Origin: Tubulanus polymorphus
Lineage: Eukaryota > Animalia > Nemertea
Reading direction: 5' to 3'
Length of the DNA stretch: 64,000 bases
Assembly: GCF_964204645.1 (NCBI RefSeq)
Contig: NC_134033.1
Location: forward strand, 7,014,655-7,078,654
Of this stretch, positions 24,088-36,684 are shown piece by piece. The notes below the pieces were generated by a model. That model was not told the DNA's origin. It ran no database searches and was given only the letters and a program-made list of their open reading frames with translations. The position numbers and the translations under genes are program-made. Positions within the stretch are counted from its first letter, which is position 1. The number at the start of each line of letters is the position of its first letter.

Positions 24088-25129
24088 TTAACAGTTTTTG
24101 TTTTTAATACTTTTTCAATTTTATATTCTTGTTCTAGATTTTCAGTAGTTAAACTTAATTCGTCGTCATAAAAGTACCCATCAACTTCTTCACCATCTAA
24201 ATCTCCTAATTAATGTACATATGGTTTTGTTGTTATTACCTTTTTTATTTTATAGATTTTTCTAGTAAAATTACGATCGTATCCTTTGTCAAATATCTTT
24301 TTATACTTAGAATTTCTAACATTTTGACCAACTTTAAATTTCCAAAAATCACCAAAATCATCTACAAGAAATGCTCCATATAAATTAGTCCAAACAATTT
24401 CAGCATTTTCAGGTTCTCTAGCATCGATAGGTTTCATTGCAATAGAAGAATGATAAGAATTATTATAACCTTCTATCAATTTTGGTAAAACCTCAATCCA
24501 TTTAAAAGTATCATTTGCTGTAAAATATTTTCACATTCTTGTTCTTAATGTTCTATTAAATCGTTCAACAACTGCCGCTTTTTATCCGATTTTGTTGAAA
24601 AATATTCAATATTATGATTATCGAAGAGTTCATGAACTACTGAATTATCAAATTCTTTTCCATCATCAAATTGTATTTTTTCTGGCTTTATTTTACCACC
24701 TGAAAACAATTTTTTAGAAACTAATGATGTTTGTGCAGCATCTTTTCTATAAAGTTTGAAGCTCCATGCATAACGACTAAAAATATCAATTATGTTTAAG
24801 ATCCACCAATAATCATCATTATCTTTCTTAACATTTTTCATGTCAATTAAATCTCCTTGCCACTGTTGATCTACATAACTTACCATTGTTTTACGAGTTT
24901 AATATTTTCTAACAATTTTTTTATGTGTTGTATATGTTGGTTGTTCTAACATAAATTCATTCATATGTTCATATTTAACTAAATCTTGTGGGATTATCTT
25001 ATCTAATTTATCTTGTTTTACTTGACGCCATATATTTTTGGTAGAAGAATAAGCAACCGAACTCTCAGGGTTATGATATAAATTTCTTAAATATTGTTCT
25101 TTAGTATTTCGAGTTTTTTTACCCCCCAT
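24088..25129 (-). pseudogene. rve integrase of copy 2, disrupted, chromodomain truncated
   Basis: QWQGDLIDM, IIDIFSRYAW, KIQFDDGKEF, VVERFNRTLR (after frameshift), YNNSYHSSIAMKP, KFKVGQNVR. Confidence 0.92.
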
Positions 25130-25159
25130 TTATATATCGTAATGTTCAACTTTATATTT

Positions 25160-26350
25160 TTAATATTGAATATTATGTGATTGAGAATTTACGATATTTA
25201 ATTGCGCATCAGATATGATATAAATGTGTATTTTGAAATTTCTTATTCCTTTTTTCTGTTTCATGAGTAATTGTATCCCATCTTTAGTGTTCTGTAATCT
25301 TTTCCCAGAACCAGGCAATAAGTTATCCTCTGTTGTTCTAAAAACTAACCATAGTGCATATTTATTACCAGTATAGTAATCAATTTGATCAATATTACAA
25401 TTTTCAGATGATTTTACTTTTTCATTCATATAATGTTTTCTAATTTCTGGCCATTGATCTATCATTCTCATTCCTTGGCAAAATATTTTATTTGCTATAC
25501 CTTCAATTGTTATTTCTTCTTTTAATATTTCTGGGTTATAATAATTATCAACATTTATTGCACCATTAGAATATGTAGCAATGGTAAAAAAATATTACTA
25601 CACCTTTAATAGTTCTTCTTGGGAAGTTAATATTCTCATTAATTATTTCATCATTTGCATTAATAGTGACAATTTTAAATTTATCAATATAATCATATAC
25701 TAAGGAAAATCCTTGATCATATTGTGTTTGAATTGTGCTAGCAATATTTTCATCAGTTACTGTATCATATTCTAAACATATATTCGATAATTTATAATCC
25801 ATATCTTTAACAACGCTAGATAATACAATTTCATTAAAAGGAGCAAATGTTATTTCGAATATAATATCTTCTTGAATTGCGTATTCATATAAAGGTCCAT
25901 TATTATTTATCAATTCAAAGTCTAATGGAATTTTATATTTGCTTCCATAAATATTCTTTATCAAATCATCTGCAGCATTAGTTACTATTGCGTCATTATT
26001 TCTATTTTCTTTTGTTAACCTTAAATCTTTATAATGCATAAATAAATTATAATCATCTAATGAAAAAACTGTTTCTGTTCCAATCTTTATAGCTAATTTT
26101 TTAATTAGATATCTCCCAACATTATCAAAACATAATTATCATCATGGCCAGTAACTTTTATATGGGCTGATAAATAAATACTATTTGGAACATAAAAAGT
26201 ATGTTGATTTAATCTCGGGATTTTAACATATAAAGTTTCATCAGGATTAATATTAGAAGGATTATGAGTAATTATATGATGAGATCTCTCTGCTTTAATA
26301 GCATTAGATATTCTAGAATTCTTAGAAGGATTTATATAACTCCCGCTCAT
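25160..26350 (-). pseudogene. Probable major capsid protein (double jelly-roll), split into three ORFs
   Basis: ~400 codons, beta-strand rich (THNPSNINPDETLYVKIPRL, KYKIPLDFEL, LSNICLEYDTV), next to the integrase. Fold is inferred from context and remembered family pattern. Confidence 0.7.
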
Positions 26351-26370
26351 TTATTTAACAAAAAAATTAA

Positions 26371-33499: not shown

Positions 33500-33509
33500 T
33501 GGCCATAAG

Positions 33510-34053
33510 GTAATGTTCTTTATTATTATTATTATTTCTTTATTCTTTCTAATGATTTCAAATCTTGATTGCATAAATACAATATTGAGTGCGACTAACA
33601 TAATTATACACACCTGCTGAACCATCGCCCATAAAAAATCCTTTGATAAAATATTCTTTTTCTTCTAATGTTTCAGGTTCTATGTTATAAATATTATCAA
33701 TTATTTCATCAAATGACATATGATTCATTGTTGGGTAAAATCTCTTATGTAATAATTCCTCTCCAATTTTTATATCAGTTGGTTTTATTTCATCACCATT
33801 ATTTCTAATTAAACTATGATCTTCTGTAACATCAACAAACCCAAATTTAGTTCTAACTCTATAAATTCTTTTATTTGTTAAATAAAATTGTATTTTTATA
33901 TGTCTAATTATATTCGTTAATTTTTTCCATCCATTTATCCATTTATTTGTATTAATTTATTAGTTCATTTTGTTTTGAAATTATTTCTGAAATTCTTCTA
34001 ATTAATATTTGATTTTTGTATTTTAATGATATTGGGGTATCAGCTGTTACAGA
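33510..34053 (-). other. Intein (N-terminal Hint blocks plus start of a LAGLIDADG homing endonuclease) inserted in PolB motif C, truncated
   Basis: Block A SVTADTPI right after YFD; after a frameshift, GWKKLTNIIRH...KRIYRVRTKFGFVDVTEDHSL (TxxH at 33816-33827), IKPTDIKIGEELLH, and FIKGFFMGDGSAG (33621-33641). Confidence 0.88.
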
Positions 34054-36599
34054 ATCAAAATATAATATTTCAATATGTTTTTCCCCAAAAAGTGGTTGTA
34101 AAACATTATAATAAAAATCGTACATTAATAATTTTGGTATTTCTAAAACAGTTGAACCAATGAATATAGGTTTATTAAATTTCATTGACGTTCTTTTTAA
34201 TTTTACCGCAGTTAAATAATCTTCAAATCTTTTATTTCCTAAATGTCTAGGACTTGATTGTAAATGTCTTAATCGTTCGGAATTATTTACTAATTCAATA
34301 TCATTTCTACTTCTAATATTTTTACATGATTTTCCATAACAACTATTATTCATTAATTTGAAGAAATCATTTTCAAAATCTGTTTTTGATATGGTTCTCT
34401 GTTGAGTATTAAAATCTATATATTTTTCTAACCACTTCGATTGATTAAATTCAATATATCTTTGTACTTTCTTTAATTTCATTTCTTGTTTTAGATAAAA
34501 TTTTAACATTCTATAATGAACAATATAATTGTATTTATTATTTTGAGTAAGTATTAATTTTTCTGTAAAAACATGATCTTTCGGTTTTATTTTCTTCTGG
34601 TATTCACTTAGATAACTATCATCTACGGCTAAATGTTCTGGGCAATATGGTAAGTTTCTTATTTTAAACTTTATGTTATCAGGATATTCTAAATCAACTA
34701 CAAAGAAATAACCAATTGGTGCTTCATCTTTTAAACCCATAATTGCACTTTCCCAATCAGTTTTATCATCATTTTCAACTACTGTTAATATAACATTTTT
34801 GTATGGTTGGGGTTGCATCATTGCTCAACCATATAGATTATTTGCATCAAAATACAATAATTTATATTCATCATTTGTTTTAAAATGTCTATCTCCCATA
34901 ACACCACTAATTCCACCTCTAATTGATTTTTCAAATAATAAAACCATGTCTGGTTCTTTTAATAAATCCAATTCTACATTTGTATATTTTAAACCACATT
35001 GCCAGGTTAAACCAGACTTGAATAACAATAACAAGGATCAACATTAAAATGATTTAAATTAACTTCTCTAATTTTTTTCAAATATATCAGCCAATATCAT
35101 AACATCTGATTTTAAGTATAAATCTACTAATTCACCATGATTTTTTATCTTAAAATGATTCCAAATATTTTATGATTAGTAAATTTCAATTTATAATCTT
35201 TTTCTGTTGGCATTATTAATTTACAAAAATCTTTATTATCACATAATTCTTTATGTTTTAATAATGTATTCTCAGTCATAAATTAAGATAAACATTTTCT
35301 TCATAATAAATTTTATTATGGTGATCACTTTCTGTTCTAAAGAATAAATCAATTTGTTTTAACCACATATAATGTTCATTTTCATCTTTTTTTGTAATAT
35401 AACAAATCTATAGCATTTTCATCATCATAATATTCTGTTAAATATAAAGCTTCCAATGTATAATCTTTAATATTTTCACCTTTTGTTTTTGGTAATTGCA
35501 TTAATTCAAAGACATTTATTTTTAAATTATTAACTTTTTCTATTTTAGAAATCATTTTTATAGTTACTGGATATTGATCAATTTTATATAATGTTTCATA
35601 TTTCCGGTAATATGTTATTCTACAAACATTTTCCTGTGTTGGATGTAAACAACTAATAATTGACCATAGAAAACATTTATTATCTTCATTTTGAATATTT
35701 ATTACTGCTTTTGTTGTAAATGGTAATTTAATATAAGATGATGCTTTAATATCCTTTTCTGTTGTAAAGTTTGAATCATTTTTAAACATTTTATTACTTT
35801 TTGATGTTTTATTTCTTTTTGTATTGTAAACATTTAAATCTAAATATATAATTTCATTCAATGTTAAGCCAGAACCCTCAAAATATCTTTCTTCAATATG
35901 ACGTTTAAATTCATTAAATATTTTTTCTAACTTCTCTTTTATTTGTGTTTTTGAAATTATTTCTTCAGAGTGTGTTTGAATATTATAATCCATTTTTTCT
36001 TCTGACTTTATAAAACTGACTTTCCCAGAGATACTAATTTTTGGATATTCAACATCTGTTATCAAATCTAGTATTTTTTCTATTATTTCATTAAATTTAC
36101 TATAATCTTCTATTGTTGTACCTTTAAAAAATCTAAATATAATAGCTGCAGGGCCAATTTTACTATGTAATGTTTCTAAAATTTCAATTGTATCTTTTAT
36201 TTCTAGTGAATCAATATAATTTCTAACATTTTCCATGTAAGGTTTATTTGAAATGGATTTAGTTTTTGAATTTGGTTTTTTTACTTTTTGAGGTTTATCA
36301 TCAAAATAATCTTTTCCTAAAACATTATTACTCAAATTTTGATGGTGTTTTTGTGATTCGAGATGTCTATTATAATTCCTTTTTACTATAAATTCATTAC
36401 AAACTTCACATTTTATTTCAACCACATTCATATTTTCTAATCTTTCTTTTCTTTCAAAATCTATTACATTTTTTATATGATTTGCAGTTTTTTCATGTCG
36501 TGTTTTATTAGATGTATCGACGTATTTTTTACAATATGTGCAATAATATTGATTTTTATTAACATTATTGTTTTCTGTCTGGTGTTCATTCTCCCCCAT
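33510..36599 (-). pseudogene. polB: Protein-primed family B DNA polymerase with N-terminal zinc fingers; internally deleted, intein-containing, C-terminally truncated
   Basis: YIKLPFTTKAVINIQNEDNKCFLWS; Exo[23 protein letters not shown]; motif A LYFDANNLYG; motif B FKLMNNSCYGK; motif C begins ILYFD. Confidence 0.93.
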
Positions 36600-36684
36600 T
36601 TATTAGGAAAAAAAATTACTTGTGGTGATGAGTGGTGTCTCGTCCTCTCGTCCTCTGATCTGAAAGCCAACTTTTCCAATTACT
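36593..36684 (-). repeat. Right TIR of Polinton copy 2, overlapping the polB start codon
   Basis: Reverse complement reads AGTAATTGGAAAAGTTGGCTTTCAGATCAGAGGACGAGAGGACGAGACACCACTCATCACCACAAGTAATTTTTTT. Confidence 0.9.

Follow-up and report, generated by a model that had tools for sequence, protein, structure and literature searches.

A poxvirus-type promoter signature and a VLTF-3-like gene in a decayed Polinton

Which RNA polymerase reads the genes of a Polinton in which no polymerase subunit is recognised? The question is raised by a stretch of 64,000 nucleotides (nt) from the Tubulanus polymorphus assembly (contig NC_134033.1, positions 7,014,655 to 7,078,654 of the forward strand; hereafter the window, to which all coordinates refer). 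It holds a decayed Polinton whose genes mostly begin with a T-run followed by TAAATG, a start context that an initial annotation, made from the sequence alone, had likened to poxvirus late promoters. The nine start contexts quoted there are present letter for letter at their ATGs, and so are the contexts named there for the open reading frame (ORF) of a satellite insert (22180), for the ATPase remnant of a second copy of the element (3213; copy 1) and for the penton, which has TAAATAATG. We conclude that the promoter signature of this Polinton is real, conserved and of poxvirus type, and that a matching transcription-factor gene is carried by the same element. The motif sites are listed below, after the element itself:

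20300..36684, 16.4 kb, no strand: decayed Polinton (copy 2), 24% GC, with 94-nt terminal inverted repeats (TIRs) containing an inward-facing promoter-like motif
36597..36618, minus strand: promoter-like motif of polB, located in the right TIR, with no upstream gene
31536..31557, plus strand: promoter-like motif of the VLTF-3-like gene, divergent, with no upstream gene on that strand
31484..31508, minus strand: promoter-like motif of the probable penton gene; in TAAATAATG TAAATA is in register with the T-run and the ATG lies 3 bases further on
30360..30381, minus strand: promoter-like motif at gene start 30362, the sole one to lie directly against an upstream stop codon
30116..30137, minus strand: promoter-like motif of a small conserved gene (pattern match)
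29674..29695, minus strand: promoter-like motif of a SLATT-like gene (pattern match)
29226..29244, minus strand: promoter-like motif with a shorter spacer, gene start 29228 (start context)
27823..27844, minus strand: promoter-like motif of a long coiled-coil/membrane gene (pattern match)
26348..26369, minus strand: promoter-like motif of the major capsid gene (pattern match)
25127..25138, minus strand: TAAATG without a T-run at the integrase start (start context)
20366..20387, plus strand: left-TIR promoter-like motif, differing by one base in copy 2, a deviation absent from sister contigs
22178-22199: full motif of the satellite ORF (start 22180), inside the 2.6-kb insert

The left-TIR gene (ATG 20385) is homologous to ORFs of two related loci, L009 and L011, that start with TAAATG. 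In copy 1, TAAATG stands at the ATPase remnant and at 1893, and the start of the capsid gene deviates from the motif by one base. The gene at 30720 overlaps the stop of the penton gene and has no motif.

The start-site motif and its register

To count the motif we used 11 delimited starts, a set that excludes the left-TIR gene. Four of them are backed by intact homologues (polB, zinc-finger/VLTF3, integrase and capsid), and for the rest the first ATG of the ORF or ORF remnant was taken, mostly as picked in the initial annotation. TAAATG was found at 9 of the 11 starts (9/12 with the left-TIR gene) versus 26 of the 510 other ATGs in the element (Fisher p 5e-10); background frequencies were 16/325 for ATGs on the coding strands and 31/1648 in the flanks. 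The misses are the penton, with its TAAATAATG, and the gene at 30720. The upstream part of the motif has a fixed position, beyond mere T-richness: the T content at -7 to -13 is higher in the nine TAAATG starts than in the 26 non-start occurrences of TAAATG (p 1e-4), a T at -10 is seen in 8/9 versus 6/26 (p 9e-4), and all nine starts have T at both -16 and -9. The combination of T-run and TAAATG, first proposed as shared by the Polinton genes, holds for most starts but not for every one, as the integrase and the copy-1 ATPase carry TAAATG with no T-run and the gene at 30720 carries neither.

A fixed-register 22-nt pattern of T-run plus TAAAT matched 10 sites in the 64 kb, every one of them a gene start of the element (the satellite ORF and the left-TIR gene included), versus a mean of 2.1 and a maximum of 6 matches in shuffled sequence. 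This pattern was built from these very starts, a circularity that is lessened by leave-one-out scoring: 9 of 10 starts were then equalled by at most 3 of 32,722 other sequence windows, and the integrase start by 20.

The resemblance to poxvirus late promoters extends to details. As described for vaccinia, the late promoter has a T-rich core, a spacer of 5–7 bp and TAAAT followed by G or A, overlapping the start codon (PMC5294985), with a T at -10 (PMC11980589). The Polinton motif has the T-run, a spacer of 5–6 nt, TAAAT(G/A), the T at -10 and a register fixed on TAAAT, so the likeness that was first noted stands and proves closer than it had seemed. It departs from its vaccinia counterpart in lying in an integrated Polinton with no recognised RNA polymerase, in heading replication and structural genes alike and in adding a fixed T-A-A at -16 to -14.

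The motif is shared by close relatives. ORF starts could be counted in 82 of the 87 polB-related loci. L008–L012 (polB 67–86% identical) group with the window copy in a single clade (SH-aLRT 99 in a quick tree of 67 rows). These loci have TAAATG at 11 of 14 starts against a background of 104/1200; of the three starts that lack it, two are ATGs inside truncated polB frames, and the upstream polB start of L012 has the motif. By comparison, TAAATG was present at 4/83 starts in 27 other AT-rich loci (background 282/6465) and at 2/200 starts in 49 GC-richer loci. No related loci came from a search with the polB fragment alone, nor from one of viral and genome contigs with a capsid alignment.

Across 266 sister contigs, no variant at 5% or above was seen in the penton TAAATAATG or in the VLTF3 promoter, versus 17 variable places elsewhere in 261 bases. 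These comparisons bear on the idea that the motif is a relic of a helper-dependent ancestor, with no living helper in the present host. Decay of both window copies and several starts lying one base off the motif would fit a relic, as would the outcome of a motif scan of viral contigs (see below), in which a helper was not found. But TAAATG is kept at open, full-length genes of the relatives with polB 67–86% identical, and among the sister contigs the motif is invariant while adjoining bases vary. We therefore consider a relic improbable.

Alternatives to a promoter

In a compact AT-rich genome, the same letters might be no promoter at all, being instead a translation context, a means of stop-start coupling, or a poly(A) or termination signal for the gene upstream. 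Selection on translation does show in the G at +4, which is present at 9/11 starts versus 89/510 other ATGs. AATAAA is contained in TAAATAAATG, and the TAA that precedes the T-run is often the stop codon of the upstream gene. Intergenic gaps are short, as had been pointed out in the initial annotation, and measure 0–68 nt. Yet only one of the nine TAAATG starts abuts an upstream stop; polB, the penton and the VLTF3 gene carry the motif with no upstream gene; and AATAAA is absent from three starts (29228, 27825 and 25129). A T at -3 is a poor Kozak base, and the AT-rich controls described above are not enriched. At the penton the distance from T-run to TAAAT is unchanged though the ATG has moved by three bases. 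This fixed register on TAAAT favours a promoter, because it follows TAAAT and not the ATG. Altogether, a signal that serves translation or 3' ends only is very improbable, and we hold with high confidence that the motif is a transcription initiator of the poxvirus post-replicative type.

Signals within the genes were also counted. The coding strands of the clade contain 126 AATAAA versus 128.5 expected (5.8 per kb) and so do not avoid it; in L008, convergent stops abut. T5NT is depleted in the same strands (19 versus 33.3 expected), but this was not used because many controls are depleted too.

A VLTF-3-like gene and the polymerase that may read the motif

The element also encodes a candidate for a factor that acts at such promoters:

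31555..33499, plus strand: broken zinc-finger/VLTF-3-like gene, with N-terminal zinc fingers, a C-x2-C-x13-C-x2-C zinc ribbon and a helical VLTF-3-like domain

The gene had been called a zinc-finger gene, and zinc fingers are indeed found at its N-terminus, but it is not a plain one: new here is its recognition as a broken VLTF-3-like gene. VLTF3 has already been reported in some polintoviruses (PMC11131425). The window gene is interrupted by a ~650-nt insertion of 40% GC (~32324–32978), and an intact orthologue of 697 residues (P0121) is found in L008. The last window fragment (33188–33499) matches PF04947 (VLTF3) with E 6.7e-7 and 29.6 bits, versus a cut-off of 25. A model of the L008 domain (pLDDT 82, from 6 rows) folds into a zinc ribbon and a helical domain, and Foldseek matches it with probability 1.0 to VLTF3s of poxviruses and giant viruses. 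Among named structures, those it matches best are the VLTF-3 proteins of two entomopoxviruses and of cowpox (E 3e-5 to 2e-4, TM 0.50–0.61), followed by giant-virus VLTF3s; the rank-1 match is unnamed and tied. Since the margins in this ranking are small, the prediction that the gene is VLTF3-like is well supported, while its derivation from a poxvirus is only suggested. A weak likeness to the TFIIB cyclin fold is seen in the helical part (Z 6.7 at best, under the tool's trust level). A homologue search with a VLTF3 alignment, limited to proteins of at least 782 residues, found none; a search of representatives gave four matches, the query among them; and nothing significant was found in the PDB by sequence or by Foldseek.

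Scanning 31 ORF fragments of the element gave no match to RNA polymerase subunits, in a copy that is decayed and partly deleted. Because no RNA polymerase gene is recognised in the element, the motif must be read either by the enzyme of a helper virus or by host RNA polymerase II. We lean towards the former: the T-run and TAAAT(G/A) would be a poxvirus-type late promoter for which a co-infecting poxvirus-like virus supplies the RNA polymerase, and the VLTF-3-like factor predicted for the element would help to recruit that polymerase. A helper is favoured because the motif agrees in detail with the anatomy of the vaccinia late promoter, because the genes leave no space for leaders or 3' ends, and because virophages, too, have a single late motif throughout their genes, shared with the late promoters of their helpers (PMC6428243). 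Helper dependence is thus likely, judging by these analogies. Transcription would start on the AAA and slip, as has been documented at the vaccinia initiator (PMC6211774), so that the mRNAs would be leaderless and begin with a non-templated 5' poly(A). The ribosome would then meet AAA-ATG-G, the added poly(A) having taken the place of the unfavourable T at -3; a G at +4 combined with T at -3 is a context that mRNAs of this kind would tolerate. If the element behaves like Mavirus, integrated copies may stay silent until a compatible helper infects the cell, after which they would be replicated by their own polB and packaged in their own capsid.

Several observations weigh against a helper of this kind. 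No helper sequence was found: the motif scan of viral contigs returned 63 loci, none of them similar to the element, and since TAAATG headed at most half of the ORF starts in each, it yielded no candidate. Pfam VLTF3 gives no match for the intact L008 protein or for its further homologues P0178 and P0180, the hhalign match to canonical VLTF3 is modest (probability 38%, E 3e-4), and poxvirus entries may lead the structural ranking owing to their compactness. Among the relatives, L010–L012 are near-copies and cannot be counted as independent. L008 retains the T-run, with T at -10 in both of its starts, but L009–L011 have mostly an A-run, with T at -10 in 2/9 of their TAAATG starts, and the fixed 22-nt pattern matches none of their starts; this A-run is closer to poxvirus intermediate promoters as described in PMC11980589. 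Nor is the picture uniform among the AT-rich controls, where 16/83 starts have TAAA(A)ATG-like contexts. Most control loci likewise do not avoid AATAAA, and for this reason the AATAAA test discriminates little. Mriyaviruses are described as keeping VLTF3 while lacking an RNA polymerase, and are thought to be nuclear (PMC11253617), so the element's factor could serve host polymerase II. Finally, the apparent high abundance of the family in sequencing run X1 is easier to explain if its spread needs no helper.

The last two points lead to an alternative in which the promoter is real and descends from poxviruses, yet the element needs no helper: the zinc-finger/VLTF-3-like protein that it encodes would bring host polymerase II to TAAAT in the nucleus. 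Such a factor is encoded by the element itself and is weakly TFIIB-cyclin-like in its helical part (the Z of 6.7 above), and chromosomal integration and apparent great abundance suit a self-sufficient element. Polintons do acquire initiation factors of their own, since the relatives L058–L060 and L085 carry TBP or TFIIB-like genes. However, the gene of the factor itself depends on this motif, so the cascade would have to be set off by another agent. A poxvirus-type polymerase is a better fit for leaderless starts with T at -3, for the many AATAAA inside the genes and for convergent genes with no gap between them, and the distant locus L087 has TAAATG at 5/11 starts yet no VLTF3 match (in 11.5 of 15 kb). 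We judge autonomy unlikely, though the persistence of VLTF3 in viruses that lack an RNA polymerase and the apparent abundance of the family keep it in play. Reading by a helper polymerase remains our preferred explanation. A broader version of it, which we offer only as a tentative possibility, is that this clade of high-copy animal Polintons consists of endogenous virophages of a poxvirus-like virus, with late promoters, a captured zinc-finger-armed VLTF-3 that draws the helper polymerase, and a satellite of their own that copies the promoter.

The polB intein does not bear on this choice. It had been called similar to those of nucleocytoplasmic large DNA viruses and cited in support of a helper, but its nearest relatives are Polinton polB inteins (53–63%), and the one giant-virus intein found is 33% alike. 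We rejected it as a sign of helper contact, its closest relatives being other Polinton inteins, one of which comes from a locus with the motif at neither of its 2 counted starts. The intein lies in polB motif C (window 33558–34051) and is absent from L008; it is common to Polintons of other clades. Being both shared across clades and patchy in distribution, it suggests homing among Polintons.

Known systems, relatives and the rest of the element

Mavirus with CroV (Cafeteria roenbergensis virus) and Sputnik with mimivirus offer the closest parallel in lifestyle, as integrating, capsid-coding elements with a polymerase gene and a common motif that resembles the late promoter of a large virus (PMC6428243). 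As described, they differ in having protist hosts, mimivirid helpers and other motifs, whereas here the host, to judge by the Pao/BEL elements in the flanks, is probably an animal, the motif is of poxvirus type and no helper is known. Entomopoxvirus-associated Polinton-like viruses (Barth et al. 2024, PMC11296320) likewise tie Polinton-like elements to poxviruses in animals. They are described as ~12 kb long, with a cysteine protease and a tyrosine recombinase or no integrase, whereas the window element has a retroviral-type integrase and a VLTF-3-like gene and no protease match; promoter, motif, TAAAT and VLTF do not occur in the main text of that paper. VLTF3, a SLATT-like gene, polB and a retroviral-type integrase are shared with coral VLTF3 polintoviruses (PMC11131425) and group 2 Maverick-Polintons (10.64898/2026.06.19.733378), for which these two sources, as far as their available text goes, report no promoter analysis. 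The window factor differs from theirs in being fused to zinc fingers, highly diverged, structurally nearest to poxvirus VLTF-3 and paired with a matching promoter motif. The yeast elements pGKL1/2 are linear too, and their TAAAN initiator gives 5' poly(A) leaders, but they encode their own RNA polymerase and have an early-type upstream sequence (PMC6211774), neither of which the window element shows. That animal Polintons might be virophages has been raised in PMC8097293, there without promoter data, and a literature search of main texts, with few subscription journals covered, found no TAAAT-type promoter described for Polintons.

A poxvirus-type promoter together with a poxvirus-like factor names the kind of helper to seek, and the choice between helper and host dependence becomes testable with a plain reporter plasmid. 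Among the relatives, start motifs vary by clade together with the captured factor (TATA-type starts with VLTF3, neither motif with TBP), and because of this covariation such motifs may reveal, across Polintons, whether an element depends on a helper or on its host. The Polinton-like contigs L022 and L023 have a canonical VLTF3 (L022:4313-5134 and L023:5998-6819; Pfam E ~1e-30) and TATA within 8 nt of 6/8 and 4/4 starts, respectively, which recalls the TATATA late motif of pacmanvirus and African swine fever virus. L058, L059, L060 and L085, also Polinton-like, encode TBP and have no TAAATG; L060 has in addition a weak TFIIB-like match. AATAAA is avoided in the coding strands of L059 (z -4.0) and L060 (z -2.5), but not in those of L058 and L085. 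L087 is a near-complete distant Polinton in a bacterial genome bin, with TAAA(A)ATG at 3 starts besides its 5/11 with TAAATG, A-rich upstream sequence and a DUF5679 gene; it may represent a second origin of the motif.

The remaining features of the element and its copies are:

33558..36599, minus strand: protein-primed polB, broken, with the intein from ~34051, after the motif-C tyrosine/aspartate, and the 3' end missing
25160-26350, minus strand: double jelly-roll major capsid gene, broken, recognised via the intact homologue P0122
740..6100 (approx.), minus strand: second copy (copy 1), internally deleted, 82–86% alike to copy 2 in ungapped blocks
21341..23951, 2.6 kb, no strand: non-autonomous insert in copy 2, with Polinton-like ends and a 6-bp target duplication; one sister-contig joint skips the insert

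The TIRs of copy 2 are 87% complementary over their 94 nt, and its GC content of 24% compares with 36–37% in the flanks. Inspection of its ends did not reveal a target-site duplication, although one of 6 bp does flank the inserted satellite. Its genes are mostly broken, with polB, integrase and double jelly-roll capsid supported: polB has 869 homologues, several of them with PF03175; the retroviral-type integrase (start 25129) matches rve with E 1e-8, above the cut-off; and P0122, 67% identical to the window capsid fragment, structurally matches double jelly-roll capsids (E 2e-16). An A32-like packaging ATPase is represented by Walker A/B-like remnants in copy 1, with a best match of E 0.07, and its region is missing from copy 2. 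No protease match was obtained in the element. The penton label follows from position and resemblance, with no family match, and the product of the gene starting at 29676 has two membrane helices and a weak, below-cut-off match to PF18142 (SLATT-like).

The 2.6-kb insert looks like a satellite of the Polinton. It contains a 24-bp tandem array and a 216-residue ORF that may resemble KilA-N, with no Pfam match; a further copy of the insert end lies at 63739–63796.

In run X1, 13,121 contigs align to the stretch, with a summed depth of 13,600–137,000 (a figure that is not a copy number) versus 26–54 for listed single contigs, and these values suggest that the Polinton family is large there. One sister contig of this run fuses the capsid start region (26338) to the right-TIR promoter (36592), as if deleted between two motif copies. 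In the clusters of P0002 (close polB) and P0171 (close capsid), the longest source contig is 16,883 bases in both cases, about the size of the whole element. ORFs in the flanks gave retroelement domains only, with a reverse-transcriptase remnant and a Pao/BEL retrotransposon at 39806–42479 and 50220–53231, and several palindromic miniature elements are present at 8.8–17.6 kb.

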